From the NCBI GenBank assembly GCA_035276425.1, contig DATELP010000107.1:1-59486 (forward strand): a stretch of 59,486 nucleotides of DNA, written 5' to 3'. The translations under genes and the position numbers were made by a program. Below, piece after piece: positions 1,712-45,661 of this stretch. The DNA is from Pyrinomonadaceae bacterium (GTDB taxonomy: Bacteria; Acidobacteriota; Blastocatellia; Pyrinomonadales; Pyrinomonadaceae). The notes beneath the pieces were generated by a model. The model was not told the DNA's origin and made no database searches. It worked only from the letters and a program-made list of their open reading frames with translations. Each line of letters starts with the position of its first letter. Positions within the stretch are counted from its first letter, which is position 1.

Positions 1712-1940
1712 CCCGGCTACTGACCCCGTCTCCGTCTCTCCAAGTAAATGGAGCAAAATCCAAATTTGTATATCTTTTGTGTGTCCCGGCTCTGAGCCGT
1801 TGTTCATATCCTTAGACAAAACGCACGTCTGATTGGTCAAACCTACGGCATATCGTTTGCTCCTCCGAAAATCGGTAAATCACGCAACAACACCCTTCAG
1901 CAGTAACCACTACAGCATGCGGAATTCCGGAGGAGCCGAT

Positions 1941-5780: not shown

Positions 5781-5810
5781 GCAACGTAAACTGACCCAAG
5801 GTGAAACCCC

Positions 5811-7268: not shown

Positions 7269-8335
7269 TGGTGATGCTTCAGGGCCGAACCAAAATAAAC
7301 TCCCGCTTCCGTTGGTTACTCACCGCGCTTCTCTTGATTGTCCCTGCGACAGCGAGCGCCCAAACGCTGCGGCCGGAGGATTATCAAAGAGAGTTGCAGC
7401 GCGCCATTTCATCGCTCTACGATCTATACGAGATCGACGAAACCGAATACCCCGAGTCTTACCAGGACCAGTTTAACGAAACGATCGCAACGGTTCATGA
7501 AGCACTACCCGAAAAGCAGTCGGTGCAGTCGAGCGACGAAGTTTGCGAAGTCGACAATAGCTGGCTGCACGCCGACCTCGAAGAGTTCAAAAAGTTAACT
7601 CCGGAAAAACGTGTAACGCGGCTCGAGCAGATCATCGCTCGCCTTCAAGCCCTGGACCAACGAGTCGTATATCAACGCAGAGCACCAACAGAAAACGACA
7701 ACAAGGTTTTCACCAAAGGCAAACTCGAAAGCATTCTGTCGCGCCCTGAATATGTAACCCAGGAGCGTGGTCCAAACGCGCTCACGCGATTGCTCCAGGA
7801 TTTCATTCGCTGGATATCGCAGTTTCTGCCCGGACCCGTCAAGATGTCGCCGGGCCGTTCAAGCTGGATGACCGTCGTCGCTCAAGTGCTCGTGTTAATC
7901 GTCGTCCTGGCGGTCGTCTTTTACGTCATCAGGATCTTGTTCAGAAGGTTTGGCCGCAAGCGCCGCAAACGCGCGCCGAAGAAACGCAAAGCGCGTATCG
8001 TGCTCGGCGAGCAATTGAAACCGGAAGACACTTCGACCGATCTGCTCAGCGAAGCAGAAGCACTCGCGCGTCGAGGTGAACTGCGCGCCGCCATTCGCAA
8101 GGCGTACATCGCTTTACTCGTCGAACTCGGCGATCGAAAGGTGATTACGCTCGCACAGCATAAAACCAACCGCGATTATTTGAACTCAGTCAGAAACCTT
8201 TCCGTGCTCCACTCAAACATGCGGGGGCTAACGGATAGTTTCGAACGTCACTGGTACGGTCTCGACGAAGCGACTGACAACGACTGGCAAAACTTCCGTT
8301 TGCGTTACGCAGCAGCGCTGCAAAACCAAAACTGA
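7265..8335 (+). CDS. DUF4129-like domain protein (signal peptide, one TM, basic stretch, C-terminal helical domain)
   Basis: The C-terminal segment AAIRKAYIALLVELGDRKVITLAQHKTNRDYL...FERHWYG matches my recollection of DUF4129. It lies next to DUF4350 and MoxR genes. Confidence 0.65.
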   Translation: MMVMLQGRTKINSRFRWLLTALLLIVPATASAQTLRPEDYQRELQRAISSLYDLYEIDETEYPESYQDQFNETIATVHEALPEKQSVQSSDEVCEVDNSWLHADLEEFKKLTPEKRVTRLEQIIARLQALDQRVVYQRRAPTENDNKVFTKGKLESILSRPEYVTQERGPNALTRLLQDFIRWISQFLPGPVKMSPGRSSWMTVVAQVLVLIVVLAVVFYVIRILFRRFGRKRRKRAPKKRKARIVLGEQLKPEDTSTDLLSEAEALARRGELRAAIRKAYIALLVELGDRKVITLAQHKTNRDYLNSVRNLSVLHSNMRGLTDSFERHWYGLDEATDNDWQNFRLRYAAALQNQN

Positions 8336-8342
8336 TTTCACG

Positions 8343-9779
8343 ATGCGCCAGCGACTCACAATTATTCTAACCTTCATCGTGATCATCGGCGCGCTCGTGG
8401 TGATCAATACGGTCTCTTACGTCAAACAGGAAAAACTTCAGGACTCGGAGTTGTTTCCCAATCGATCCACTTATCACTCCGGACCGACCGGCACGCGCGC
8501 GCTGCACGACTTCTTGAGCGAGTCGGGTTACAAAGTGATTCGCTGGCGTGAAGCTCCGGAGAAGTTGTTGGGCCAGGGGGGTAATAAGGTCTCGACGTTT
8601 GTTGTTATCGCCCCGACTCAGTTGCCGTTCAGTGACGAACAACAAAAGGCTCTGACAGAGTGGATCAGTCGCGGTGGTTGTTTTGTCCTGGTTACACGTG
8701 AGCTTGAACTCACGCACGAGGCGCCACCGGGTAGTTGGGCCGTCACTTCAAGAACAACCGACTTTCCGAACTTCGATACCGATCCCGCCAACGGCGCCCA
8801 GATGACCGAGAACGTGACTGCGCTCAAGCCGGTTCAGCCTACCAGCCTGACGCACAACGTCGCGTCGGTGTTGCCATCGCGTTTTGCCGCGCGCATCACG
8901 CTCACTCCGGTTGATCCCCGACCTGCCAAGGCGGCTGAAAAAGCGCCCACTCCGATCCTCGGAGGATCCGCTGAAGAAGAAGACACCTCGTATCAAGATG
9001 ACGAAGAGGCCGAGCTGCGTGAAGAAGATCCACCACCTCCTGCGGCCGTTCCGGAGCCGAGCGTGCAAGAAAGGTCTATGGCGCCGGTTGTACACATCGC
9101 CGATAAAAACGGAGCGTTACTCGTCGACTATGCCTACGGTCTCGGCCGCATCGTGGTGCTGGCCGATCCCTACATCGTCACCAATGCCGGCATTCGCTCA
9201 AACGACAACTTACAACTCGCAATCAATACGCTGACGTTGTACGACGGACTGATCGCTTTTGACGAATATCATCAGGGACGCGGTGTTACCCGTAACGCGT
9301 TTGCCAGTTACTTTTCGGGCACGCCGGTGCTGGCGATAGGCGCGCAGATAGTTCTTTTGCTGCTGCTGATACTTTGGACCAACGGGCGGCGGTTCGCGCG
9401 TCCGTTACCTCTGCCGCAAGTCGATCGGCGTTCGAGTCTGGAATTCGTCGCTTCGATGGCGGAGCTCCAGGAACGTTCGCGCGCCTACGATCTGGCAATC
9501 GAAAACATCTACGGGCGCACGCGTCGAGTGCTCGCTCGACACGCGGGTCTCAATTACAACAGTTCACGTTCGGAAATCGCTTCGAGCATCGCGTCGCGTG
9601 CGAACATCGATGCTCAGCAACTGGAAACGTTGATGAAGCAATGTGAAGACACCATCAACGGTGAGCCAATCAACTGGCGGCAAGCTGTAGATCTCGTCAG
9701 ACGATTGCGTGAAGTCGAAAGAAAACTTGGCTTGCGGATGCGTTCGCGTGACGCGCGGCAAGCCGCGGAAAATATCTGA
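8343..9779 (+). CDS. DUF4350-like domain protein
   Basis: N-terminal TM, a GGCFVLV / RIVVLADPYIVTNAG pattern and a second TM near residue 340. Its position between DUF4129 and MoxR is typical of this cluster. Confidence 0.6.
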   Translation: MRQRLTIILTFIVIIGALVVINTVSYVKQEKLQDSELFPNRSTYHSGPTGTRALHDFLSESGYKVIRWREAPEKLLGQGGNKVSTFVVIAPTQLPFSDEQQKALTEWISRGGCFVLVTRELELTHEAPPGSWAVTSRTTDFPNFDTDPANGAQMTENVTALKPVQPTSLTHNVASVLPSRFAARITLTPVDPRPAKAAEKAPTPILGGSAEEEDTSYQDDEEAELREEDPPPPAAVPEPSVQERSMAPVVHIADKNGALLVDYAYGLGRIVVLADPYIVTNAGIRSNDNLQLAINTLTLYDGLIAFDEYHQGRGVTRNAFASYFSGTPVLAIGAQIVLLLLLILWTNGRRFARPLPLPQVDRRSSLEFVASMAELQERSRAYDLAIENIYGRTRRVLARHAGLNYNSSRSEIASSIASRANIDAQQLETLMKQCEDTINGEPINWRQAVDLVRRLREVERKLGLRMRSRDARQAAENI

Positions 9780-9803
9780 CGAAACGAGGTCAACAACTAA
9801 CGA

Positions 9804-10757
9804 ATGTCCGAAATCGTCTTCTCCACTGTTGCTCACATCAAAGACGAATTAGCAAAAGTCATCGTCGGCCAGAACGACGCGATCGAACAGATCCTGATCG
9901 CTTTGCTCGCGGAAGGTCACGCGCTCATCGAAGGCGTCCCGGGTACGGCGAAGACGCTGACTGTCAAAACACTCTCGCGCATCATCAACGCCGGCTTCAG
10001 TCGAATTCAGTTCACGCCCGATCTGATGCCGTCGGACATCACCGGCACGAACGTCTTCAACATCGCAAACTCCACTTTCAATCTGCGGCGCGGTCCGATC
10101 TTCACCGACATCCTGCTCGCCGACGAAATCAATCGCACACCGCCAAAGACGCAAGCCGCTTTGCTCGAGGCGATGGAAGAACGACAAGTGACGATCGATG
10201 GCGACGCCTTTCCGTTGTCGCCGATCTTCACAGTACTCGCAACTGAGAACCCGATCGAATACGAAGGAACGTATCCGTTGCCCGAAGCGCAGCTCGATCG
10301 TTTTCAGTTGAAGATACTTTTGGATTATCCGGCTGAAGACGAAGAGCGTGAAGTGTTGGCGCGTTGGGACAGTGGCTTCAACGCGAAGCGACTCGATCAA
10401 GTCGACATTCAACCGCTGGGGGATCCGAGTGCGATCCTGCAATGTCGTGCTGCCGTTTCCCAAACGCGAATGGAACTTGGCGTGCAGCACTACGCAGTCG
10501 ATCTGGTGCGGCGTACGCGCGCACATTCATTCGTTCACTACGGTGCGAGTCCGCGCGCGTCCGTCGCGTTGCTCTTATGTTCGAAAGCGCTCGCCGCGAT
10601 TCGTGGACGAGTATTCACAACTCCGGATGACGTGCGCGACGTGGCGTTGCCGGTGCTTCGTCATCGACTGACCTTGCGCGCCGAGGCGGAGCTCGACGGG
10701 GTCACTCCGGACGCCGTGATTACCGACATTTTGGGGGCGGCGGAGGTCCCTCGGTAG
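9804..10757 (+). CDS. moxR: MoxR-family AAA+ ATPase
   Basis: Walker A is GVPGTAKT and Walker B is LLADEINR. The [20 protein letters not shown] and [22 protein letters not shown] motifs are classic MoxR. Confidence 0.92.
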
Positions 10758-11126
10758 GGCTGTTAGTGGCCCAGGACCGTACAAAATTGCCGAGGCATTA
10801 TTCATAAATGTGAACTGCTCAGGGCTTGCTGGAATTTGAGATTTTGAAAAGAACTTTTGGATTTTGGATGGCCGTCACGGTTTGAACGACTCCTCCGAGC
10901 CGTCGGATCTAGGTATTTCCGCACCTCTCTACTAAAAACCGGATATGGGAACATTCCTTGCATAACAGAGCCACGCTGTGTTGTCTCCCTATGGTTTGTC
11001 GAACTTTTCATCTCACGGATTCCTAACAAGTGAGATTTTGATGATCAAGCCTTCTGGGGCTGCGAGGTACTCGTAAGCGGCTTAGAGAAGGTCCTCCAAC
11101 AAAGTATGTTTCGGGAAGGAGCCCAA

Positions 11127-14100
11127 ATGAAGAAATTGCTTTTTGCCTTCATGCTTGCGGCCCTGACTTTGAGCTTATCCGCAGTGGTGGGATTTGCTCA
11201 GAGCACCGCGGGTGTGACAGGAATAGTTAAGGATAGCAACGGTGCTGTAATTGCCGGGGCTGATGTAAAACTGACAGATACGAAAACCGGCGTTGAGTTG
11301 ACCACCAAGACTAACGATCAAGGTGTGTACAACTTCCCCAAAGTGTTGCCGGGCACTGGCTACAAGCTCACTTTCACTGCTTCGGGTTTTCAAACTCTGG
11401 TAATCAATGAAGTAGCTCTCGGCGTTGGCAACGTGGAAACACATAATGCCGAAATGACTATCGGCGAGGTCTCCGGCACCGTTGTGGTGACGGCCTCCAA
11501 TGAAGTTACGCTGAATACCACCGACGCGAGCGTCGGCAACGTTATCGGAGAACGAAGACTTAAAGAGCTTCCAATTCAGATTCGTAATTCCCCAGCGGCG
11601 CTGATCGGCTTGCAGGCCGGCGTAGTCGGAAACAACGTTGGTACTGCTACCACTAACCGCGTTGGTTCCGTTACCGGTTCACGCGCTGACCAGGGAAACA
11701 TCACGATCGACGGTATCGACGCGAACGATCAGGCCACCGGCCAGTTCGCAGCAACCGTTGGTAATGCTCCGATCGATGCGATTCAGGAGTTCCGCGCGGT
11801 TTCAACAAACCCCGGTGCTGCTGATGGTCGAAGCAGCGGCGGCCAGGTTGAGTTGGTGACCAAGAGTGGTACCAACGAGTTCCACGGCAACCTGCGTGAG
11901 TACAACCGCACGGCAAAAACCGCGGCGAATTCTTTCTTCAATAATCGCGCGGGTGTTGCCAGACCGCAACTGACTCGTAATCAGTTCGGTGGCAGTATTG
12001 GTGGTCCAATCATCAGAGACACGATGTTCTTCTTCTTCGATTATGAAGGACGTCGCGATGCTCAAGGCATTTCTTACTTGCGCGTGGTTCCATTGAATCA
12101 CTTCCGCAATGGCAGCCTTGGCTTTCTCAACAACACAGCAGGTTGCGCCGCCACAGCAAGGTTGAACACCAACCCCAACTGCATCACCATCCTGACTCCA
12201 GCTCAGGTGGCTGCTCTCGATCCGGCCCACATCGGTGGAAGCTCGTCCTTGTTGAGCTTCATCAACAGCCGTTATCCGCAGGCGAACGACTTGACCGCGG
12301 GCGATGGCGTCAACACCGGTGGTTTCCGTTTCAATGCTCCGTCGAAACGTCAAGACAACACGTACACGACCCGCATCGACTGGAACGCCAATTCGAAGCA
12401 GAAATTCTTTGGCCGTTTCAATATCGCTCGTCGTATTCAGACTGACACCGTCAACTCGGTGGCAGCTCAGTTCCCCGGCGATCCTGAAACCGCTCAAATC
12501 ATTGTTCGCGACTACACCTGGGTTGTGGGCCACACCTGGACCGCCAGCCCGAGTTTAGTCAACCAGATCACGGTTGGTGCAGCCCGTTCGGGATTGCTCT
12601 TCCCGAATAACTTCGATCCGGCTTCGCCGAATTCATTCACTTTCGGAATGGGTTTGGCCGCGCCGTTTGCGAGCATCAGTGAGCAGGATCGCTTCGTGCT
12701 CACGCCAACGATCCGCGACGACGTGACTTGGACCAGAGGTGCGCACTCGTTTGAGTTTGGTGGCTCCTTCAAACCCATCAAATCCCGCTCGGGAATCGTG
12801 AACGACTTCAACTTCCCGACCGTCGGTCTTGGTGGTCTGCTGACCTCGCTCGATTCCACTCTCCGACCGGGTACGATCGGATCCGGAACGGCGCGCTCAG
12901 GTAACTACGATGCGGCGTTTGCGTTCCTTCTCGGACGTTACGCTCAGGTCTCGACCAACTTCAACTACGATCAGGACGGTACTCCTTTCGCGCCGGCCAC
13001 CGGCAAACATCGCGATTACCGCTACAACGAGCTCGAACTCTACGTCCAGGATAACTGGAGAGTTCGCAACAACCTGACGTTGAACTTCGGTGTTCGCTGG
13101 CACTTGTATCCGGCGCCTTACGAGGCGAACGGATTCCAGGCCGGTCCGGACGTCGATATGCGCAGTTTGTTCGACATCCGTCAGCTCAACAACGCTGCCG
13201 GAAATGGAACCCAAACCGCCGAGCCTCAGCTCCGCTACGACCTTATCGGCAAGGCGAACAATGCTCGTTCACTTTACGAAACTGACTTGAATAACTTTGG
13301 TCCGCGTTTTGGTTTTGCCTACACGCCGAACTTCAAGAGCGGCGTGCTGAACAGCATCTTCGGCGACAACAAAACAGTGATCCGCGGTGGTGGTTCACTT
13401 GTTTACGATCGTCCAGGCGGCGGTATCACCTTCATTCAGGACCAGGTTTCGTACCTGTTCGACAACTCGTTTACAACGCAATTCCCGGCCTCGTCTCCGA
13501 CGTCGGCCTTGTTGAACAACCCGCGCTTTTCGGGTATCACGACGCTGCCGGTGGTGAACCCCGCGCCAGTAATCACGCGTCCGTTCACTCCGTTCCAGGA
13601 CAACCCGGATTGCCCGTTGCAGCCGACCGGTCTGTGCACGGGTGAATTCAACTATGCAGTTGATCAGAGATTCCGGACCCCGTATTCGATCCAATACAGC
13701 TTCGGGTTCCAGCGCGAGATTCCGGGCAACTTCATCCTGGAAGCCACCTACGTTGGCCGCCAGGGAAGAAAGCTCTTCTCGCAGGCTGACTTGGCCCAGG
13801 TTTTGGACTTCAGGGATCCAGCCTCTGGTCAGATGATGATCGCGGCATTCAACGCTCTGCAGGCTCAGGTTCAAGCCGGACTTACGGGTGGCCAGATCAC
13901 CGCGCAGCCCTGGTTTGAGAACCAGATGTTCCCAGGCGGCACCGCTCTGATGGCCGGCAACGGAACGCTTAGACAGCTCGTGTTGCGTGGAGATACCTCC
14001 GACGCGATTCAGCTCCTCTATGCGAACGGTTTGCTGAACCAGAACGTTGGTATGTCGGCGCAGTTCGGCACCAACATCTACGTGTCCAATCAGGGCGCGT

Positions 14101-14876
14101 CCAGCTACGACGGCATGCTCGTGAGCTTGCGGAAACGCTTCTCACAGGGCTTGCAGTTTGACTTCAACTACACCTGGTCGCACTCGATCGATAATGGATC
14201 GAGTGTTGTGAACACCGTGTCCGGCGGTCTGGTTTGCGATCTTCGCAACCTGCGCGTCTGCCGCGGCGATTCCGACTTCGACATCCGCCACCTCGTCAAC
14301 GCCAACTTCATTTATGAGTTGCCGTTTGGCCGTGGCCGCATGATCGGTAGCGGCGTTCCTGGCTGGGCAAATCACATCATCGGTGGTTGGGAAGTTAGTG
14401 GCATCTTCACTGCTCGCAGTGGACTAGCCTTCAGCACCACGACTACCGCGTTCCCGGTGGGCTTCAACTTCAACAGCCCGGCGGCCTTCAATATCGCCAA
14501 CGCGGCCGCGTTGCAGTCAAGCATTCACGATGCTTCTAATGGGACCATCCAGTTCTTTGCGAACCCAACGGCAGTATTCGATCCAGCCAATCCGACGGCT
14601 GGCGTGATTCGCTTCCCGCACCACGGTGAAGTTGGTAACCGTAACGTTTTCCGCGGACCCGGTTTCTGGAACCTCGACACAGCGTTGTTGAAGAACTTCG
14701 CGATGCCCTGGTCAGAAAGTCAGTCCTTGCAGTTGCGATGGGAAACATTTAATTTGTTCAATCACAACAGCTTTGGCTTACCGGCAGTTGGTATTACCGG
14801 AACGACCTTCGGTACAATCACCACGTCGGCCAGTGCTCCGCGCGAAATGCAATTCGCATTGCGTTACACGTTCTAG
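11127..14876 (+). CDS. TonB-dependent outer-membrane receptor with carboxypeptidase-regulatory-like N-terminus (paralog of 1941..5780)
   Basis: SD GGAAGGAG lies before the ATG at 11127. It has a signal peptide, a GVTGIVKDSNGAVIAGADVKL...PGTGYKL domain and a C-terminal ..ALRYTF. Many blocks are colinear with the first receptor. Confidence 0.85.
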   Translation: MKKLLFAFMLAALTLSLSAVVGFAQSTAGVTGIVKDSNGAVIAGADVKLTDTKTGVELTTKTNDQGVYNFPKVLPGTGYKLTFTASGFQTLVINEVALGVGNVETHNAEMTIGEVSGTVVVTASNEVTLNTTDASVGNVIGERRLKELPIQIRNSPAALIGLQAGVVGNNVGTATTNRVGSVTGSRADQGNITIDGIDANDQATGQFAATVGNAPIDAIQEFRAVSTNPGAADGRSSGGQVELVTKSGTNEFHGNLREYNRTAKTAANSFFNNRAGVARPQLTRNQFGGSIGGPIIRDTMFFFFDYEGRRDAQGISYLRVVPLNHFRNGSLGFLNNTAGCAATARLNTNPNCITILTPAQVAALDPAHIGGSSSLLSFINSRYPQANDLTAGDGVNTGGFRFNAPSKRQDNTYTTRIDWNANSKQKFFGRFNIARRIQTDTVNSVAAQFPGDPETAQIIVRDYTWVVGHTWTASPSLVNQITVGAARSGLLFPNNFDPASPNSFTFGMGLAAPFASISEQDRFVLTPTIRDDVTWTRGAHSFEFGGSFKPIKSRSGIVNDFNFPTVGLGGLLTSLDSTLRPGTIGSGTARSGNYDAAFAFLLGRYAQVSTNFNYDQDGTPFAPATGKHRDYRYNELELYVQDNWRVRNNLTLNFGVRWHLYPAPYEANGFQAGPDVDMRSLFDIRQLNNAAGNGTQTAEPQLRYDLIGKANNARSLYETDLNNFGPRFGFAYTPNFKSGVLNSIFGDNKTVIRGGGSLVYDRPGGGITFIQDQVSYLFDNSFTTQFPASSPTSALLNNPRFSGITTLPVVNPAPVITRPFTPFQDNPDCPLQPTGLCTGEFNYAVDQRFRTPYSIQYSFGFQREIPGNFILEATYVGRQGRKLFSQADLAQVLDFRDPASGQMMIAAFNALQAQVQAGLTGGQITAQPWFENQMFPGGTALMAGNGTLRQLVLRGDTSDAIQLLYANGLLNQNVGMSAQFGTNIYVSNQGASSYDGMLVSLRKRFSQGLQFDFNYTWSHSIDNGSSVVNTVSGGLVCDLRNLRVCRGDSDFDIRHLVNANFIYELPFGRGRMIGSGVPGWANHIIGGWEVSGIFTARSGLAFSTTTTAFPVGFNFNSPAAFNIANAAALQSSIHDASNGTIQFFANPTAVFDPANPTAGVIRFPHHGEVGNRNVFRGPGFWNLDTALLKNFAMPWSESQSLQLRWETFNLFNHNSFGLPAVGITGTTFGTITTSASAPREMQFALRYTF

Positions 14877-14901
14877 CTCGGTTTACTTTGTTTGACTTTT
14901 C

Positions 14902-14933
14902 GGGCTCCTGCGAAAGTGGGAGCCCATTTTTTT
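14902..14933 (+). terminator. Hairpin plus T-run after receptor 2 (terminator or attenuator)
   Basis: GGGCTCC / GGAGCCC stem followed by ATTTTTTT. Only about 30 nt separate it from the next ATG, so read-through transcription is plausible. Confidence 0.65.
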
Positions 14934-14962
14934 AGGCGCCCACCTCAATCGGAGTAAGAACA

Positions 14963-15952
14963 ATGCTGAAACTCTCCCTGGCTTACTTGTCTTTGCTATT
15001 CGTTCTAATCGCAACCTTCCCAGGCACAGCCCAGGCCCAGGGCGGTCAAACGCTCTTTGGCGACGTGCGCATAACAGGTGAGAACAATGAACTGGTGTTC
15101 AAGGAGGTCACCTTAATTCTTCGCAAAGTACCGGACGGAGAGGTCGGCCGCCAAACAGTCTCGAGTCGCGGTCGTTACCGCTTCACGAATTTGAAGGTGG
15201 GAGAATACGAGATCGTAATCGAGGCGGAAGGCAAGGAAATCGGACGTATGGGACAGCTCATGGTCCGGAGTGAGCTTAGTAACAGTCCATACGGCCACCA
15301 ATACGATCTGGAGTTTAAGTGGCATCCGAACGCTGCTGCGACGCAGCCTGTGGCAGGCGTGATCTCGGCGGCTGACGTTTACGAACGGCCCAGTTCAAAT
15401 CGGCCGTTGTTCCAAAAGGCTGAAGAAGCCGTTGGCAAAAAGAAATTCGATCAGGCTGCCGGTCTACTAAAACAGATCCTCGATACAGATAACAACGACT
15501 TTCAAGCGTGGACCGCCCTCGGCACCGTCTACTTCGCACAGGAAAAAGTTGCGGACGCGGAAACCGCGTATATGAAAGCGATCGAAGTTCATCCGACTTC
15601 GGCGCGCGCCCAATTCAATCTCGGCCGCTTACGCTCCTCGCAAAAGAAATTCGAAGAAGCAGTAGAACCACTGACCAAGGCCATCGAACTGCAACCGGAT
15701 TCAGGTGATGCAAACTATCTGTTAGGCGAGTGTTACCTGCAACTCAAGAAAGGTTCGAAAGCGGTTCCGTATTTGAATGAGGCGGCGAAGCTCGGGCGCT
15801 CGGATGCTCATCTGCGGCTCGGCTGGCTCTACAACGCGGCCGGCATGAAAGACAAAGCGGCGATCGAATACGAAGAGTACTTAAGGAAAAACCCTGATTA
15901 TCCCGAGAGCAAGAAGTTGAAAGAGTACATCACGGCCAATAAAAAGAGCTAA
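14963..15952 (+). CDS. Secreted TPR-repeat protein with small carboxypeptidase-regulatory-like N-terminal domain
   Basis: Signal peptide ending AQAQG, then a GRYRFTNLKVGEYEIVIEA beta-sandwich-like segment. The C-terminal half has TPR-like A/Y/L periodicity (AWTALGTVYFAQEK.., ANYLLGECYLQLKK..). Confidence 0.7.
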   Translation: MLKLSLAYLSLLFVLIATFPGTAQAQGGQTLFGDVRITGENNELVFKEVTLILRKVPDGEVGRQTVSSRGRYRFTNLKVGEYEIVIEAEGKEIGRMGQLMVRSELSNSPYGHQYDLEFKWHPNAAATQPVAGVISAADVYERPSSNRPLFQKAEEAVGKKKFDQAAGLLKQILDTDNNDFQAWTALGTVYFAQEKVADAETAYMKAIEVHPTSARAQFNLGRLRSSQKKFEEAVEPLTKAIELQPDSGDANYLLGECYLQLKKGSKAVPYLNEAAKLGRSDAHLRLGWLYNAAGMKDKAAIEYEEYLRKNPDYPESKKLKEYITANKKS

Positions 15953-16027
15953 TAGAAAGTAAGAACGGCCAGTTGACCAGTAGTGCCACGCTTGCTAAGG
16001 TGCGCGTGACCTCAGGAGTACTACGCA

Positions 16028-16552
16028 ATGGGAAAATTTTCAAAATCCGTCGAAGTTATAGCGAATATCCTCATCGTGGTCGTCGCGGTGTTGTGTCTGT
16101 TTTTGCTCTGGCAGAAGTACTTCAGAGCCCAACCACCGGCGACAGCCGAATCCAATCGCCCGGCGCCGAGGGTTCCTGTTGTCGGTAACAAGGTCTCGGC
16201 TGTGGATGTTGATTGGTCGAAGAACAAGAAAAACGTTTTGCTCGTGCTGCAAGTCGGCTGTCGTTTTTGTAGTGAGAGCGCCGGGTTTTACCAGACCCTG
16301 ATCCAGCAGACGAAGGACAAGGGCGTAAGCGTTTTAGCAGTTCTTCCGCAAAGCAAAGAAGAAGCGAGACAATACCTCGACAACCTTCAGCTCTCTAACC
16401 TCGACACTAAACAAGCGGCAATGAGTACCCTCGACGTTAGCGGCACACCCACGCTCATCATCACCGATGACAAAGGTCAGATCACAAACGTGTGGGTCGG
16501 CAAGCTGCCGCCGGAAAAGCAGAACGAGGTTCTGAGTCTATTAACAAGCTAA
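16028..16552 (+). CDS. Membrane-anchored thioredoxin-fold thiol:disulfide oxidoreductase (TlpA/DsbE-like)
   Basis: N-terminal TM (IANILIVVVAVLCLFLLW), a CxxC motif in VLQVGCRFCSES and a cis-Pro-like GTPT. Confidence 0.7.
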   Translation: MGKFSKSVEVIANILIVVVAVLCLFLLWQKYFRAQPPATAESNRPAPRVPVVGNKVSAVDVDWSKNKKNVLLVLQVGCRFCSESAGFYQTLIQQTKDKGVSVLAVLPQSKEEARQYLDNLQLSNLDTKQAAMSTLDVSGTPTLIITDDKGQITNVWVGKLPPEKQNEVLSLLTS

Positions 16553-16617
16553 CTCAGTTTCTTCCTCTTCCCCCTTAAGTTACTAAACACCCCCTTACCC
16601 AAAAGAAAGGTATACGT

Positions 16618-17013
16618 ATGTTCAATAAACCTCTCGTGCGGTGTAGTGTGCGCATACTCGCGTTAGCCATCATGGTTGGAATGTTGGGTTTTCTTACAGC
16701 TACTGAAAAAGTAGAGGCCGGAACACTCGAACAGTGCGAGCAAGGCTTTGCTTTTTGTCTCTACGAAAATTGCAGAGGACTTTTTGGCCCCGACTATGAA
16801 GCCTGTCGTGATAGTTGCGATCTCTCATACGAATCGTGCCGGCTCGACAATAATTATCAACCGCCTCCGGCGCCATTTCCGGTGGAAGACCACAGCCGGG
16901 AAACCTGCATGCTCGCTACTAATGCTTGCGGGGAGCTTGAGGATTATCCCGATTCTTTGACCTGTTTCATGGAAATTCGCGCCTACTGTATTGCGACTTA
17001 TCCCAAACCCTAA
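16618..17013 (+). CDS. Secreted acidic 10-cysteine protein, paralog 1 of 3 (unrecognised family)
   Basis: Strong SD (AAAGAAAGG), a signal/anchor ending KVEAG, and Cys spacing conserved in all three paralogs. Confidence 0.8.
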   Translation: MFNKPLVRCSVRILALAIMVGMLGFLTATEKVEAGTLEQCEQGFAFCLYENCRGLFGPDYEACRDSCDLSYESCRLDNNYQPPPAPFPVEDHSRETCMLATNACGELEDYPDSLTCFMEIRAYCIATYPKP

Positions 17014-17046
17014 CTAAACATTTCTCGTCCAAAGGAAGGTGCAGTT

Positions 17047-17442
17047 ATGTTCAATAAACCTCTCGTGCGATGTACTCTGCGGCTATTCACGTTAGCTGTC
17101 ATGGTTGGCCTGCTGGGTTTTCTTGCCACTACTCAAAAGGTAGAGGCTGGAACACTCGAAGAGTGCAACCGAGCGTTCGGCCTCTGCCTTGTCACAGAGT
17201 GCAGGGGACTATCTGGCCAGGACTATTTGAACTGCCGCGATGCCTGCGATCGCTCTTATGAAGATTGCCGGTTTGACGATGATTATCATCCGGATCCGGT
17301 GCCGCTGCCGGTCGAAGACCATAGTCTGTCAGGTTGTTTGGAAGCTTGTCAGGCTTGCTTTGATCTACCCGACCAGATTGACGGTTTCTTCTGTAATGTC
17401 GAATGCCGGAAATACTGTTTTGACACTTATCCCAAACCCTGA
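17047..17442 (+). CDS. Secreted acidic 12-cysteine protein, paralog 2 of 3
   Basis: SD AAAGGAAGG. Same length and Cys framework as paralog 1, plus two extra Cys (positions 101 and 120). Confidence 0.8.
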   Translation: MFNKPLVRCTLRLFTLAVMVGLLGFLATTQKVEAGTLEECNRAFGLCLVTECRGLSGQDYLNCRDACDRSYEDCRFDDDYHPDPVPLPVEDHSLSGCLEACQACFDLPDQIDGFFCNVECRKYCFDTYPKP

Positions 17443-17495
17443 CCGTTACGGCATGACAAACTAAACAATCGCCCGTTCAAGAAAGGAAGGTACAG

Positions 17496-17888
17496 ATGTT
17501 TAAACCTCTCGTGCGGTGTACTCTGCGGCTCTTCACGTTAGCCGTTATGGTTGGCATGTTGGGCTTTCTTGTAACTACCGAAAAAGTAAAGGCTGGAACA
17601 CTCGAAGAGTGCGAACAAGCGTTCGCTTTCTGTCTTTACGAAAACTGTCCGGGACTTACTGGTCAAGCCTATGAGGATTGCCGTGATGCCTGCGACCTCA
17701 CTTACGAATCATGCCGTTGGAACGGTGATTACCAACCCGGTCCGGCGCCATTTGCAGTGGAAGACGATCGTTGGGAAACCTGTATGTCGGCCACTCAGAA
17801 TTGCTGGCTGCTCGAACAGCCAATCGATAGACTGATGTGTGATAAGGAAATCAGCGACTATTGCGATGAACACTACCCCAGACCCTGA
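17496..17888 (+). CDS. Secreted acidic 10-cysteine protein, paralog 3 of 3
   Basis: SD AAAGGAAGG and the same framework as the other two. Ends in YPRP where the others end in YPKP. Confidence 0.8.
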   Translation: MFKPLVRCTLRLFTLAVMVGMLGFLVTTEKVKAGTLEECEQAFAFCLYENCPGLTGQAYEDCRDACDLTYESCRWNGDYQPGPAPFAVEDDRWETCMSATQNCWLLEQPIDRLMCDKEISDYCDEHYPRP

Positions 17889-17912
17889 CGGTGACGGCGT
17901 TCACGATTAAGC

Positions 17913-17949
17913 AAAGCGGCGCGGAGACAATCCAGCGCCGCTTTTTTTG
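17913..17949 (+). terminator. Rho-independent terminator closing the Cys-rich gene triplet
   Basis: AAAGCGGCGC / GCGCCGCTTT stem followed by TTTTTTTG. Confidence 0.75.
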
Positions 17950-17953
17950 TGAC

Positions 17954-19306
17954 ATGCCGTCCCGCGTTGGTCTACAATTCTCCACGTTGCGCTTCGTCTT
18001 CACTAAATTCTTCTACTTCCTGGCGGCGCTCGCTTTTGTCCCGCTTTCACTCTCGTGGCAGCGCCCGTGGCTGGCGTGGGTCGCACTCGCTTACGACGTC
18101 CTGCTCATCATCGCGGCAATCGTCGACGCAAAGTTGAGCCATCTGCCGAAAGGTTTTCAGGTCACGCGGCACTTCGACGGCCGCTTCGCGATGGGCGCGG
18201 AAACCGAAGTAAAGATTCATCTTCACAACGCGTCAAACCGCGCGGTCTTGTTGATTGTCAAAGACGAGTATCCGCCGCAGATGATTCTCAAAGGTGAACG
18301 CGAGGGTGAAGTGAAAGTCGACGCGCACAGCACTGCGACGCTGATCTACGCCGTGACGCCGCCACGACGCGGCCGCTTTGAGTTTGGTTACGTAGCGTTA
18401 CGGTTTCGTTCGCGGCTTAATCTCGTTTGGTGCGACGCGCGTGTTGCCGAACCGATGGCGGTTAAAGTCTATCCAAACATGCGCCGCGCGCGTGAAGCGG
18501 AGTTGAAAGCACTCGGCGCGCGTTCGATGGTTGCGTCTCATCGGAAAACATCGTGGCGTGGCGAAGGACGCGAGTTTGAATCCATGCGCGACTACGTTCG
18601 CGGCGACGAACTGCGTCACATCTCCTGGACCGCCACCGCGCGACGCGGAAAACTCACGACGCGCCAGTATCAAATCGAACGCGATCAAACCATCCTTGTT
18701 GCACTCGATTCCGGCCGCTTGATGACCGCGCGTATCGAACAGGAAACCAAACTCGACTCCGCGGTACACGCGACGCTCGCGCTTTTTTCCGCCGCCGCGC
18801 GCGCCGGCGACAACGCAGGTCTGATCGTGTTTGGCCGGCGCATCAAGAGTTACTTGCCGCCGAGTCGCGGCCGCGATCACATTGATGCGGCGCTCGAATC
18901 GCTTTACGCGGTCGAACCGGAGATGATCGAGCCTTCGTACCCCCACGCGTTTGAGTTCATCGCCGCCAACAGCAAACGTAGATCGCTCGTGATTCTGCTT
19001 ACCGATCTGGTGGATGAAGAAGGTTCAAAAGAATTACTGACGTCGCTTCATCTGCTTCGTCCGCGTCATTTGCCGCTCGTGGTCACGATTGCGGATCGAG
19101 ATCTCAAGGCTGTAGTGCAGGGAGTTCCTGCGACAGTGCAGGATCTGTTTGCGCAATCAGTGTCCGAAGAGATCATTCACCATCGTGAGGCGGCGTTGAG
19201 AATGGTTGAATCGGTCGGCGGGCTCGCGCTCGACGTGACCGCAGCAGCGCTGGCGCCGGCATTGCTGGAAACGTATTTGAAGGTGAAGGAACGCGGCTTT
19301 CTCTGA
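17954..19306 (+). CDS. DUF58 domain protein (MoxR-associated, VWA-like)
   Basis: Two N-terminal TM segments, then FESMRDYVRGDELRHISWTATARRGKLTTRQY, the motif I associate with DUF58. The ATG at 17954 follows the terminator; the listed ORF starts at a GTG at 17891. Confidence 0.85.
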   Translation: MPSRVGLQFSTLRFVFTKFFYFLAALAFVPLSLSWQRPWLAWVALAYDVLLIIAAIVDAKLSHLPKGFQVTRHFDGRFAMGAETEVKIHLHNASNRAVLLIVKDEYPPQMILKGEREGEVKVDAHSTATLIYAVTPPRRGRFEFGYVALRFRSRLNLVWCDARVAEPMAVKVYPNMRRAREAELKALGARSMVASHRKTSWRGEGREFESMRDYVRGDELRHISWTATARRGKLTTRQYQIERDQTILVALDSGRLMTARIEQETKLDSAVHATLALFSAAARAGDNAGLIVFGRRIKSYLPPSRGRDHIDAALESLYAVEPEMIEPSYPHAFEFIAANSKRRSLVILLTDLVDEEGSKELLTSLHLLRPRHLPLVVTIADRDLKAVVQGVPATVQDLFAQSVSEEIIHHREAALRMVESVGGLALDVTAAALAPALLETYLKVKERGFL

Positions 19307-19319
19307 TTCCGGTTTTGAA

Positions 19320-19394
19320 CCCTCGTTTTGAGTTCAAGCTTTAGCTTGCATTGGTCAGCAAAGAACAACCTAAAGGTTGAACTCAGAACGAGGG
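19320..19394 (+). repeat. REP-like Y-shaped element, copy A
   Basis: ccctcGTTTTGAGTTCAAGCTTTAGCTTG-17 nt-CAACCTAAAGGTTGAACTCAGAACgaggg, lying between convergent 3' ends. Confidence 0.8.
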
Positions 19395-19416
19395 CGCTAT
19401 TTTAGAAAATTGAGAA

Positions 19417-20385
19417 CTATTCTGCTGGCGCCGGTTCGTGACCGACGAAGAGCAGGTAACTGTACAACGCGAGTCCGGTCAGCGCCGCGATGCTGTACTT
19501 GATTCGCGGATCGATCGCCGCCGGTGAGACAAACCCTTCAATAGTTCCCGCGACCACCAGCAACAGCGCAACTCCGATCATCAAACGAACCGCTTCCATC
19601 CCGCGCGTCCGCAACGCATCAGCGCGCGTCAAATCGCCCGGCATGATCATCGCGCTGCCGATCAATAACCCCGCGCCCCCGGCAATAAAAATACACGACA
19701 GTTCGACAACTCCGTGCGCCACCATGAACGTCACGAGGTCCTTGCCGAAACCGGCTTTGTAAGTCAGCGCGAGCACGGACGCGATGTTGGCGCCGTTGAA
19801 GGCCATGTAAAAAAGCGTGCCGACACCAGCCAACGCGCCGAAAGCAAACGTGTAGATCGTGACCTGAATGTTGTTGGTCATGATCGCGCTGGCGCCGACC
19901 TGATTACTCTGGTTCAGTGATTCCCACCAGTGTGTTTTGGTTTCGATGTACAACTCGCGAAAGGCCGGATCGACGCCGACGAGTTCCGAAAAGTCGGGAT
20001 CGTATTTGGTAGCCACGAAGCTCAGCACTGCGAAAAGCGCGAAAGTGGCGAACGCGACGAACGTGTAACGCCACGTGCGGCGAAACGTCTGCGGCAGCTC
20101 GTGCGTGAAGTAGCGGCGAATTCGTTTGCCACCCTGCGCGTCGGCGCGATAGATGCGGCCGTGCGCGCGGATGACGAGACTGTTGAGGTAATTAACGAGC
20201 CGCGGATCTCGCGACTCCGCGCGGGCGATGGCCAGATCGGAAGCCGTGCGCCGATAAATGCGGCCGAGCTCGCGTACTTCCTCGCGGCCCAAACGTCTCA
20301 ACGAAGCGTGGTCGAGCAGCTTGAGCAGATCTTCGAGCCGTTGCCAGGCGTTTTTGCGTTGACTGATGAAACGGTCGGAAGGAAT
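19417..20385 (-). CDS. SpoIIM-like (DUF95) polytopic membrane protein; start codon uncertain
   Basis: N-terminal F-I-x-x-R-x-x-x-W-x-x-L-E-x-L-L and YRRTASDLAIA motifs followed by about 6 TM segments. There is no ATG or GTG near the conserved N-terminus. The candidates are ATT at 20385 or TTG at 20460. Confidence 0.65.
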   Translation of the reverse strand: MPSDRFISQRKNAWQRLEDLLKLLDHASLRRLGREEVRELGRIYRRTASDLAIARAESRDPRLVNYLNSLVIRAHGRIYRADAQGGKRIRRYFTHELPQTFRRTWRYTFVAFATFALFAVLSFVATKYDPDFSELVGVDPAFRELYIETKTHWWESLNQSNQVGASAIMTNNIQVTIYTFAFGALAGVGTLFYMAFNGANIASVLALTYKAGFGKDLVTFMVAHGVVELSCIFIAGGAGLLIGSAMIMPGDLTRADALRTRGMEAVRLMIGVALLLVVAGTIEGFVSPAAIDPRIKYSIAALTGLALYSYLLFVGHEPAPAE

Positions 20386-20389
20386 TGTG

Positions 20390-20475
20390 CTTTGTCCTTT
20401 GAGCTTTGTACTTTGGCGTTCAAATATCCGCGAACGTAGTGTAACTTTGCAAAGTACCAAGCTCAAAGAACAAAG
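20390..20475. repeat. ACAAAG-heptad hairpin element, copy A
   Basis: Arms CTTTGTCCTTTGAGCTTTGTACTTTG (20390-20415) and CAAAGTACCAAGCTCAAAGAACAAAG (20450-20475) are complementary at 24 of 26 positions. The loop contains ACGTAG. Confidence 0.8.
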
Positions 20476-20482
20476 TTCAAAG

Positions 20483-21394
20483 ATGCGTCCACTCGTCGAA
20501 TGTGTTCCCAATTTCAGTGAAGGGCGAAAGCCCGCGACGGTGCAGGCGATTGCTGAGGCAATCGCGGCGGTTGAGACGGCGTGCGTGCTGGACACGCATA
20601 TCGATCCGGATCACAACCGTTCGGTGATTACGTTTGTGGCGACACCCGAGAATGTAGTTGAAGCAGCGGTGCGCGCGGTGAAACGCGCGTCGGCACTGAT
20701 CGACATGCGCACGCATCAGGGCGAACACCCGCGACTGGGCGCGACGGACGTGTTGCCGTTCGTGCCGGTCCATGCAGTGACGATGGACGACTGCGTTCGG
20801 TTGGCCCATGAAGCAGGCAAGCGCATCGCGAGCGAGTTGTCTATTCCGGTTTACTTTTACGAGCAGGCCGCACGGCGTTCCGATCGAATCAATTTAGAGG
20901 ACGTGCGGCGTGGTGCTTTGGAGTTGTTACGCGAACAGATCACCACCAACCCCGAACGCGCGCCCGATGAAGGCACGGCGGTGGTCCACGACACCTCGGG
21001 CGCGATCGCAGTGGGTGCGCGTCCGTTCCTGATCGCGTTCAACGTCGTGCTGCGCAGTGACGACATCGCGATCGCACGCCAGATCGCGAAAAGCATCAGA
21101 GCACGCAACGGCGGTTTGCCGTTTCTCAAGGCGTTGGGCTTTCGCTTATCGACGCGGAGTTGTGTGCAGGTGTCTATGAACCTGGTGAATTATGAAGTCA
21201 CCGGAATGGACGCTGCTTACAATGCGATACGTCGCGAGGCGTCGCGCTTGGGCGTCGAGATCGACAGCACCGAGATCGTCGGTCTCGTACCGCGCAACGC
21301 ATTGGATCCTGAAGCCGAGTATTTCAGCAAACTGGAAAACTTTTCCGAGGCGAAGATTTTGGAGAACCAAATCGCTAACTGCCCGGATCGTTAA
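20483..21394 (+). CDS. ftcD: Glutamate formimidoyltransferase
   Basis: MRPLVECVPNFSEGR at the N-terminus is characteristic, and the length of about 303 aa fits. The upstream part of the listed ORF is encoded by the repeat. Confidence 0.8.
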   Translation: MRPLVECVPNFSEGRKPATVQAIAEAIAAVETACVLDTHIDPDHNRSVITFVATPENVVEAAVRAVKRASALIDMRTHQGEHPRLGATDVLPFVPVHAVTMDDCVRLAHEAGKRIASELSIPVYFYEQAARRSDRINLEDVRRGALELLREQITTNPERAPDEGTAVVHDTSGAIAVGARPFLIAFNVVLRSDDIAIARQIAKSIRARNGGLPFLKALGFRLSTRSCVQVSMNLVNYEVTGMDAAYNAIRREASRLGVEIDSTEIVGLVPRNALDPEAEYFSKLENFSEAKILENQIANCPDR

Positions 21395-45658: not shown

Positions 45659-45661
45659 GCG

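Follow-up and report, generated by a model that had tools for sequence, protein, structure and literature searches.

A triplicated cysteine-rich protein with predicted stapled hairpins, encoded beside a membrane-anchored redoxin in Pyrinomonadaceae

What might link three small, cysteine-rich and apparently exported proteins to the membrane-anchored redoxin encoded directly before them? The question is raised by a stretch of 59,486 nucleotides, contig DATELP010000107.1 of the Pyrinomonadaceae bacterium assembly GCA_035276425.1, which we refer to as the window. Note that Acidobacteriota, the phylum concerned, rank with the most abundant bacteria in soil, and that their exported proteins are poorly understood. 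On the plus strand, open reading frames (ORFs) at positions 16618..17013, 17047..17442 and 17496..17888 encode cysteine-rich paralogs 1, 2 and 3, of 131, 131 and 130 amino acids respectively. At the DNA level these genes form a direct repeat in three copies, with spacings of 429 and 446 nt, and the proteins are 59-65% identical in pairwise comparisons. The redoxin, a ResA/TlpA-like protein of 174 amino acids, is encoded at 16028..16552 (plus strand). In our preferred explanation, to which we assign a probability of about 0.6, the locus specifies a triplicated, Sec-exported, acidic double-hairpin protein. The disulfides of this protein would be formed, or proof-read, by the cognate membrane redoxin.

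The cysteine-rich family and its predicted disulfides

The cysteines at positions 40, 47, 52, 63, 67, 74, 97, 104, 116 and 124 are invariant in the paralogs, as is Cys9 of the leader. The resulting spacings are 6, 4, 10, 3, 6 in the first half and 6, 11, 7 in the second, with 22 residues between. Paralogs 1 and 3 are of this 10-Cys type. Paralog 2, of a 12-Cys type, also has Cys101 and Cys120, giving C-domain spacings of 3, 2, 11, 3, 3. The mature part, of about 97 amino acids, is strongly acidic (isoelectric point, pI, 4.0-4.2), contains a Pro-rich linker and ends in YP(K/R)P. A preliminary description of this DNA, made from the letters and translated ORFs, had reported the tandem genes, both cysteine frameworks, the linker and the C-terminal motif, and the translations verify all of these. 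It had also proposed an N-terminal signal. The leader does have the n-h-c organisation of a Sec-type signal peptide, with V-x-A, a predicted cleavage motif, at its end. A lipoprotein reading was rejected; there is no lipobox, and Cys9 sits in the n-region and is found in only 16 of the 44 family members that we collected. Among the paralogs of the window, conservation is highest in the leader (71-88% amino acid identity) and lowest in the C-domain (37-50%). The claim that the C-terminal half has diverged most is accurate here but not across the family, where the C-terminal hairpin and its flanks (PxPWPVIDxSRSxC...YCxETYPKP) are the most conserved part.

The family is rare. None of the three paralogs was assigned a family by Pfam, NCBIfam or PADLOC, and a Pfam search with all 44 members found none either. 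The sub-threshold matches amount to noise: Defensin_beta (0.098), TIGR04117 (0.0021) and Vicilin_N (0.0057, in one member of the 44). A family profile had no match among PDB sequences, even at E values up to 10. Six clusters came out of a word-indexed search of 5.8 billion proteins, which understated the size of the family. An exhaustive HMMER search of 1.84 billion representatives, clustered at 50% identity, gave 38 matches at E up to 1e-3. One of these (P0041) is spurious, so the family has about 37 representatives in that collection. All members with an organism name come from Pyrinomonadaceae metagenome-assembled genomes (MAGs). Similarly, scanning 185,579 species-representative genomes gave four loci, each in a MAG of Pyrinomonadaceae (Acidobacteriota), and a metagenome locus scan with a sub-alignment found one. 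We conclude that this is a real family, described by none of the libraries searched and very narrowly distributed. The proteins had been called unrecognised from the start, and they remain so.

Do the cysteines behave as pairs? Across 44 homologs, the cysteines of pair N3-N4 are both present in 35 sequences and both absent in 9. The equivalent numbers are 36 and 8 for pair C2-C5, and 38 and 6 for pair C3-C4. No homolog has a single member of any of these three pairs. In one subfamily, hairpin 1 is closed at its open end by an additional pair, Nx-Lx. Here, 14 homologs have both cysteines, 28 have neither, none has Nx only and 2 have Lx only; both of the latter have one further cysteine outside the assigned columns. 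The number of cysteines in the mature part is even in 42 of the 44 homologs. On a neighbour-joining tree, C2 and C5 were lost together at least twice, and C3 and C4 at least four times, with no loss of a single cysteine among pairs N3-N4, C2-C5 and C3-C4. The palindromic cysteine spacings also match antiparallel helices. Together with the structural models described below, these patterns support a nested disulfide map. In the first hairpin, the predicted bonds are 40-74, 47-67 and 52-63; in the second, they are 97-124 and 104-116, with 101-120 as an additional pair in paralog 2. We infer that the paired cysteines exist as disulfides in vivo. Note that the map can be obtained from the evolutionary coupling of cysteine pairs by itself, and that confidence in the architecture is high.

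The models were built with AlphaFold2 (AF2). For full-length paralog 1, with 8 sequences, AF2 gives a leader helix followed by helices at 37-52, 57-76, 94-106 and 110-127; the block means of the predicted local distance difference test (pLDDT) are 75-91 in the hairpins. For mature paralog 2, with a 29-sequence alignment, the mean pLDDT is 86.6 and the helices span residues 3-17, 23-42, 59-72 and 76-93. In this model the hairpin blocks score 83-96 (mostly 89-96) and the linker 67-71, with a predicted template modelling score (pTM) of 0.46. Because the pTM is just 0.46 and the linker is of low confidence, we read the model as two independently oriented hairpins, not one four-helix bundle. Hence, the mature protein is predicted to consist of two independent helical hairpins with a flexible, Pro-rich linker between them. 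The covariation of cysteine pairs is, we believe, stronger evidence than AF2 for the hairpin map. The two lines agree on the double disulfide-stapled hairpin that had been proposed, including its third staple at 101-120, and the co-occurrence of cysteine pairs in the 44 homologs is perfect. Foldseek, run against the PDB with both AF2 models, returned nothing at or below an E value of 0.001. The best local echo, a non-significant one, is the plant vicilin-leader alpha-hairpin 7uv4 (E 5.8, TMt 0.52), as would fit convergence towards a very simple fold.

Cysteines may serve purposes other than stable disulfides. In the main rival to our explanation, the redoxin is a reductase that keeps the cysteine-rich proteins reduced or cycling. 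The proteins would then be a thiol buffer, an oxidant scavenger or binders of Cu(I), Zn or Cd. Alternatively, the clients of the redoxin would be Sco, CoxB or apocytochromes, and the cysteine-rich proteins bystanders. We consider this unlikely, and first weigh what the cysteine-rich proteins themselves say about it. Csp1 and Csp3 (DUF326) are small helical proteins with cysteines spaced i, i+3/4/7 along their helices. In the present family, the cysteines also lie on one face of each helix, comparable to such cysteine-lined bundles. Furthermore, the non-significant Foldseek matches (E 5-8) include three cysteine-rich helical proteins, B. subtilis Csp3, PA2107 and Nmul_A1745, which we take to be members of the copper-storage (Csp) family. 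Reversible disulfides, too, would give coupling between paired cysteines. Conversely, pairwise gain and loss, and the even count in 42 of 44 homologs, suit disulfide partners better than multi-cysteine metal clusters. There is no Pfam match to cysteine-rich metal-binding families, DUF326 included, at E up to 1, and AF2 predicts two independently oriented hairpins (pTM 0.46) instead of a compact four-helix bundle. Because gain and loss of cysteines occur strictly pair by pair, a thiolate protein of the metallothionein or Csp type is argued against, and the metal-binding role mooted in the preliminary description is disfavoured. A Csp-like copper store was rejected on the combined grounds of covariation, even cysteine count, lack of a profile match for the 44 members and the two-unit AF2 model.

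A further candidate class was also set aside. Proteins of the CHCH, or twin-CX9C, type are defined by a pair of C-x9-C (or C-x3-C) motifs carried by antiparallel helices. Here the spacings are 6,4 | 3,6 and 6 | 7 (or 3,2 | 3,3), and there is no Pfam CHCH match; the proteins do not qualify as twin-CX9C/CHCH or twin-CX3C hairpins.

The redoxin and the genes beside it

Pfam assigns the redoxin to the Redoxin family (38.2 bits, compared with a cut-off of 26.6), with further matches to Thioredoxin_2 and AhpC-TSA. Its best NCBIfam match is the ResA subfamily (PRK03147), with 33.8 bits, far under the cut-off of 170. A phmmer search of the PDB with the single sequence found no match, whereas a profile of the redoxin clade detected ResA (4nmu, E 5e-6), StoA and DsbE-like proteins. 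On this basis we place the protein in the TlpA/ResA-like superfamily, outside the ResA subfamily. Our Pfam scans of the window covered genes of the locus at any size and, elsewhere, ORFs of roughly 200 amino acids or more; among these, no ccm or res genes adjoin the redoxin. The protein has one N-terminal transmembrane (TM) helix, the active site GCRFCSES and a cis-Pro loop, GTPT. Across the clade (28 sequences, down to 39% identity), C78, C81 and T140-P141-T142 are invariant, as are N13 and I16 in the TM anchor, where E9 is near-invariant. Polar and invariant residues of this kind appear unusual for a passive anchor.

Is the redoxin consistently found with the cysteine-rich genes? It lies directly upstream of such a gene in 12 of 12 Pyrinomonadaceae loci. 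Synteny among close relatives is weak evidence for a link, and cases outside the shared context are more telling. At two loci, L012 and L017, the redoxin and cysteine-rich pair, again with the redoxin directly upstream, occurs in another context, without the gene for the 329-residue tetratricopeptide repeat (TPR) protein or the outer-membrane barrel gene found beside it in the window. At a third, L001, a segmental duplication (6487-7826) comprises a 3' fragment of the TPR gene, a full second redoxin (6847-7389) and a second cysteine-rich gene, encoding 124 amino acids (7452-7826), with a leader that lacks Cys9.

The surroundings of L012 and L017 have features of their own. Genes for an extracytoplasmic function (ECF) sigma factor and a putative anti-sigma factor are divergent from the pair (L012 3190-4613; L017 3721-5624), with a large CHAT-TPR protein encoded beyond. 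In L017, RHS and TIR-NTPase genes are also nearby. Such neighbours hint at envelope-stress or conflict-related regulation.

A search seeded with the redoxin gave 208 clusters at E below 1e-10, and five contexts were examined. At L020 (4567-4809; identical in L021 and L022), an 80-amino acid ORF follows a CHFC redoxin of 40% identity. Its mature part, of 46 amino acids, is acidic and has 8 cysteines spaced 3,6,3 | 5 | 3,6,3, with a single hairpin predicted. This ORF is homologous to the leader and N-terminal hairpin of the family (hhalign probability 96%, E 2e-9). At L018, in the Luteitalea MAG GCA_009377605.1, two tandem ORFs (5244-5480 and 5560-5808) stand just before a CRFC redoxin of 45% identity. 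Each encodes a signal peptide and a hydrophobic peptide of about 50 amino acids, with 6 cysteines spaced 3,10 | 12 | 10,3. From their sequences, these peptides look like another stapled-hairpin, bacteriocin-like family. At L023 (3573-3818), an 81-amino acid ORF, with a signal peptide and 9 cysteines of an unrelated type, precedes a redoxin of 51% identity. The remaining two contexts are that of L017, described above, and that of L016, a syntenic locus without a cysteine-rich gene.

We conclude that, across Acidobacteriota, redoxins of this clade usually neighbour small exported cysteine-rich proteins, although the link is not universal. Since the clade adjoins several different cysteine-rich cargos, the conserved unit is best described as a redoxin plus a stapled cargo, the cargo being variable in kind and copy number. 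Several of the neighbouring cargos have palindromic cysteine spacing, which would imply stapled hairpins.

In which direction might the redoxin act? The active site of the clade is C-[RH]-[FY]-C, without proline. A proline is typical for reductases of this fold, as in ResA (CEPC), TlpA (CVPC) and StoA (CPPC). Oxidases and isomerases, such as DsbA (CPHC), DsbC (CGYC) and PDI (CGHC), typically have an aromatic residue in second place. By analogy, the dipeptide of the redoxin, R or H then F or Y, seems closer to that of an oxidase or isomerase than to x-Pro motifs, and would tell against a reductase. The SdbA protein of S. gordonii has a TlpA-like fold. This thiol-disulfide oxidoreductase makes disulfides in secreted proteins (PMC5112981), which shows that enzymes of this activity are capable of doing so.

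The rival reading, with a reductase as its starting point, draws support from the same gene. The nearest solved relatives of the clade are ResA, StoA and DsbE-like proteins, and ResA is the best NCBIfam match. The ECF sigma and anti-sigma genes beside the pair at two loci suggest envelope-stress regulation. In addition, SCO1/SenC, COX2 and COX1, the classical clients of TlpA-type reductases, are encoded in the window at 43979-47592. Against this, the cox and sco genes are 26 kb away, the redoxin adjoins cysteine-rich ORFs in five distinct contexts, and no gene for the electron donors CcdA or DsbD is nearby among the window ORFs scanned. We therefore favour disulfide formation or isomerisation, and regard reduction or redox cycling as the main rival. 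The preliminary description had spoken of a dedicated oxidative-folding partner. Of this, linkage beyond local synteny holds; the oxidative direction was assumed, and the solved relatives are those just named.

Our preferred explanation connects gene structure, family membership, predicted hairpins, coupling of cysteine pairs and recurrent adjacency as follows. The cysteine-rich genes would be co-transcribed with that of a membrane-anchored, ResA/TlpA-like oxidoreductase, its catalytic domain facing the periplasm. The precursor would be exported via Sec. The closely spaced disulfides of the precursor would be formed or isomerised, and so proof-read, by the cognate redoxin while the precursor is on the outer side of the inner membrane. 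Signal peptidase I would then cleave after V-x-A, and a very stable mini-protein would be released. The action of the redoxin on the cysteine pairs, its direction, signal peptide cleavage and the final location of the product are the conditional elements of this scheme. For the end function, our best guess is an extracytoplasmic protein that resists proteases and serves in binding or inhibition, or else one that is antagonistic.

A more elaborate form of the scheme, which we regard as doubtful, is leader-guided oxidative folding. Here, the redoxin, with its C-[RH]-[FY]-C active site and the Glu and Asn residues of its TM helix, would dock within the membrane on the unusually conserved cargo leader (R-L-F-x-L-A-x-M-x-G), and the nested disulfides would be made before cleavage, yielding a repertoire of antagonistic or inhibitor hairpins. 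This would be a Sec-dependent analogue of leader recognition in RiPPs (peptides synthesised by ribosomes and modified after translation). The products, variable between strains, would be hairpin proteins of the double and the single kind, and 6-Cys peptides of hydrophobic character.

Several observations weigh against formation or proof-reading of cargo disulfides by a cognate redoxin. The nearest solved relatives of the redoxin, ResA and StoA, are extracytoplasmic reductases. Sec, in a diderm, leads to the periplasm only, and an outer-membrane export route is not evident. Many of the syntenic loci belong to close relatives and are not independent observations. At L016, the barrel, TPR and redoxin genes are kept at the syntenic site without a cysteine-rich gene, leaving a 256-bp spacer. 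The distant Nx-Lx subfamily has three members with no redoxin on their own short contigs (1.7-5.6 kb). Finally, the redoxin clade, with 208 clusters, far outnumbers the cargo family. Hence, most of these redoxins must have other clients, or cargos missed by sequence search. The preliminary description had taken absence of the redoxin neighbour to speak against its proposal; this was seen in part, in that the distant subfamily has no redoxin on three contigs and L016 has no cysteine-rich gene.

Some of these points would be accommodated if adjacency had no functional meaning. In that case, the redoxin would work alongside the TPR protein and barrel, envelope biogenesis being one example, and the cysteine-rich genes would be an unrelated insertion that uses the general disulfide machinery. 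L016, which has MoxR, barrel, TPR, redoxin and DUF58 genes and no cysteine-rich gene, fits this reading. So do the members of the distant subfamily without a neighbouring redoxin, and the fact that most paired loci are syntenic close relatives. We nevertheless think it very unlikely. In L012 and L017 the pair recurs with neither the TPR nor the barrel gene, L001 has a joint duplication of redoxin and cargo, and in three further contexts more distant redoxins also stand next to small exported cysteine-rich ORFs. By a rough reckoning, such an arrangement in 4 of 5 contexts is very unlikely to arise by chance.

Note that the general theme, a dedicated oxidoreductase for a disulfide-rich peptide, is already established. 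If the redoxin described here is cargo-specific, it would add a new case, in diderm bacteria, of disulfide catalysis dedicated to a client. The unit would also be a compact and portable system for making hyper-stable helical mini-proteins, which are scaffolds for peptide engineering. If the cargos are antagonistic proteins or inhibitors, they would form a new Sec-dependent class of ribosomal product, in a phylum with few characterised natural products.

Genomic setting and history of the paralogs

The redoxin and the three cysteine-rich genes are preceded by a gene for an exported, 329-amino acid TPR protein (14963..15952, plus strand). This protein has a signal peptide, read from the translation, then a weak CarboxypepD_reg-like beta-sandwich (1.5e-5, under the cut-off) followed by TPR repeats (Pfam TPR_16, 2.7e-26). 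The preliminary description had placed a TM-anchored CRFC thioredoxin-fold protein and a secreted TPR protein upstream of the paralogs, and Pfam recognises both, as Redoxin and TPR_16. An intrinsic terminator at 14902..14933 (plus strand), with a 10-bp stem containing 7 GC pairs, followed by ATTTTTTT, lies downstream of the barrel gene and is the 5' boundary of the unit. A second, at 17913..17948 (plus strand), ends it (dG -37 kcal/mol, z = -5, 0 of 200 shuffles equally stable, then T7), in agreement with the terminator noted previously. The genes between these terminators share a strand, and the gaps separating them measure 33-75 nt. Hence, from sequence, the TPR, redoxin and three cysteine-rich genes look like a single transcription unit. 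A strong Shine-Dalgarno sequence had been ascribed to each cysteine-rich gene. In this role, AAAGGAAGG precedes paralogs 2 and 3 only, and paralog 1 has AAGAAAGGT.

Upstream of the unit, the outer-membrane barrel of 1256 amino acids (11106..14876, plus strand) has CarboxypepD_reg and OMP_b-brl_4 domains (5.4e-165) and is syntenic in Pyrinomonadaceae; the first terminator separates it from the unit. It is preceded by a MoxR-type AAA+ ATPase gene (9804..10757, plus strand; AAA_3, 1.3e-62), with an equal arrangement in L002, L009 and L016. Downstream is the gene for a DUF58/VWA protein (17987..19306, plus strand; DUF58, 2.3e-33). Its mechanically assigned start, GTG 17891, overlaps the terminator. 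Because orthologs in L009-L011 begin MRFVFTK, which matches TTG 17987, the latter is probably the true start. A sigma-70-like site, GTGACA-18-TACAAT, lies at 17949-17978, between the terminator and this TTG. The gene order in Pyrinomonadaceae is fixed: MoxR, barrel, TPR, redoxin, cysteine-rich gene or genes, DUF58, a SpoIIM-like gene (minus strand) and FTCD. MoxR and its usual partner DUF58 are thus split by a cassette of about 7 kb (barrel, TPR, redoxin, cysteine-rich genes) in every Pyrinomonadaceae contig that spans the site. TPR orthologs occupy the equivalent position in L001, L002, L005, L009-L011 and L016, but the TPR gene is not next to the redoxin in L012, L017, L018, L020 or L023. 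We conclude that linkage of the TPR and barrel genes to the module is confined to the Pyrinomonadaceae locus.

Other features of the window are given briefly. DUF4129 and DUF4350 genes lie upstream of the MoxR/DUF58 region, and the SpoIIM-like gene lies downstream, on the opposite strand. Between the divergent SpoIIM-like and formiminotransferase genes is an inverted repeat (20385-20480), with a 34-nt loop and 31-nt arms that are 87% complementary. When 9500-21000 was scanned with Rfam, the only matches were miRNA-like and spurious, on both strands of this repeat. The window encodes two paralogous outer-membrane barrels with CarboxypepD_reg and OMP_b-brl_4 domains (1833-5780 and 11106-14876), less than 10 kb apart. 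An expanded family of such barrels is typical of Acidobacteriota. The genes for SCO1/SenC, COX2 (fused to a cytochrome c) and COX1, at 43979-47592, are on the minus strand; at about 26 kb from the redoxin, they do not count as evidence for a link. The remaining window is ordinary core chromosome, including genes for purine catabolism, PEPCK, cytochrome oxidase and an NrfD/Fe-S complex.

How did three copies arise? Copy content varies among strains. Loci L002-L004 have only a p1-type protein (P0001, 90% identical to paralog 1) and L007 only a p3-type (P0002, 89% identical to paralog 3). L005 and L006 each have one protein of a 124-amino acid type and one of a 132-amino acid type, and L001 has two redoxin-cargo modules. 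Four MAGs have one copy, and three copies occur in this window only. Because of this variation, we consider the paralogs to be older than these strains and differentially retained. Judged from sequence, the window locus is a lineage-specific triplication. Paralog 2 is the ancestral 12-Cys form, with paralogs 1 and 3 in a derived clade that has lost C2 and C5. The dN/dS ratios (Nei-Gojobori, paralog pairs by region) range from 0.11 to 0.74 and are below 1 everywhere, the highest being for the C-domain of paralog 1 compared with paralog 2. Positive or diversifying selection is therefore without support in any region, and the proposal that the paralogs are diversifying is not upheld. Leader dS values (16618-16722, 17047-17151 and 17496-17597) are 0.38-0.51. 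Those of the mature parts are at least 0.70, and saturated in some comparisons. The low leader dS suggests gene conversion, constraint at the nucleotide level or selection on the mRNA or leader.

Variable copy number might also reflect an arms race. In this explanation, which we find quite unlikely, the cargos are Sec-dependent, bacteriocin-like or antagonistic stapled hairpins and the redoxin is their maturation enzyme. The differences among strains, with 1, 2 or 3 copies and with only the p1-type (L002) or the p3-type (L007), fit this reading, as do cargos that vary by redoxin locus, including the two hydrophobic 50-amino acid, 6-Cys peptides in the Luteitalea MAG. Some loci are surrounded by conflict-type genes (RHS, CHAT, TIR and ParE). 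The best local Foldseek match, although non-significant, is the alpha-hairpin 7uv4, and the architecture resembles that of glycocins (PMC12457901) and plant alpha-hairpinins (PMC11591084). Other observations do not fit. The window's large ORFs include no glycosyltransferase, peptidase-containing ABC transporter (PCAT), immunity or radical-SAM gene. Strong acidity (pI 4.0-4.2) sets the proteins apart from most membrane-active antimicrobial peptides, and dN/dS is below 1 everywhere. Furthermore, the position of the locus is fixed in the core chromosome across Pyrinomonadaceae, and there is no obvious means of crossing the outer membrane.

Comparison with known systems

The redoxin shares with ResA, TlpA, StoA and CcmG (and SdbA) a Redoxin/TlpA-like fold, a CxxC motif, a cis-Pro loop and anchoring by the N-terminus. 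As they do, it appears to serve specific extracytoplasmic clients. It differs from ResA, TlpA and StoA in that the similarity is remote and polar residues of the TM helix are invariant. Its putative clients are cysteine-rich proteins, rather than cytochromes, Sco or SpoVD.

The cysteine-rich proteins resemble plant alpha-hairpinins, which have CX3C...CX3C and 6C (C-x3-C-x3-C-x(4-20)-C-x3-C-x3-C) motifs and are antimicrobial or inhibit trypsin (PMC11591084). The C-domain of paralog 2, C-x3-C-x2-C-x11-C-x3-C-x3-C, is one residue off the 6C motif, and the N-domain has the pattern x6/x4...x3/x6. As in alpha-hairpinins and vicilin-buried peptides, the predicted fold is a stapled antiparallel helical hairpin, and tandem hairpin modules are possible in one precursor. 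Alpha-hairpinins differ in being eukaryotic, processed from storage-protein precursors and made without a dedicated redoxin gene, and there is no significant homology. The likeness is most likely due to convergence on a simple fold.

The cysteine pattern of glycocin F and sublancin is C-x6-C...C-x6-C. A predicted hairpin with nested disulfides, here C40-x6-C47...C67-x6-C74, is common to the present proteins and to glycocins such as sublancin 168, glycocin F and thermoglycocin. A third disulfide in some members is a further shared feature. In glycocins, nested disulfides staple a helix-loop-helix core, and the clusters contain genes for thioredoxin-like isomerases (Bdb/GccC/D/ThgC/D) (PMC12457901). 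Equally, the redoxin gene at 16028-16552 is directly upstream of the cysteine-rich genes. Glycocin clusters also encode an S- or O-glycosyltransferase and a C39 peptidase-containing ABC transporter, together with a double-Gly-type leader (PMC12457901). Unlike these, the window has no glycosyltransferase by Pfam, and no ABC/C39 gene, among the ORFs scanned, and the leader is of Sec type, not double-Gly. No sequence similarity to glycocins was detected. There are two hairpins in one acidic, 97-amino acid protein, and the host is a diderm Acidobacterium, not a Firmicute. The match to TIGR04117, a radical-SAM target with cysteine repeats, is 18.1 bits compared with a cut-off of 50, for paralog 2 only, and no radical-SAM gene was found in the window. 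Glycocin and sactipeptide clusters were rejected, as no glycosyltransferase, PCAT or radical-SAM gene was found among the window ORFs scanned. The locus is thus not a glycocin cluster. Yet the glycocin and sublancin theme, in which a thioredoxin-fold protein accompanies a hairpin with nested disulfides, is its closest functional analogy.

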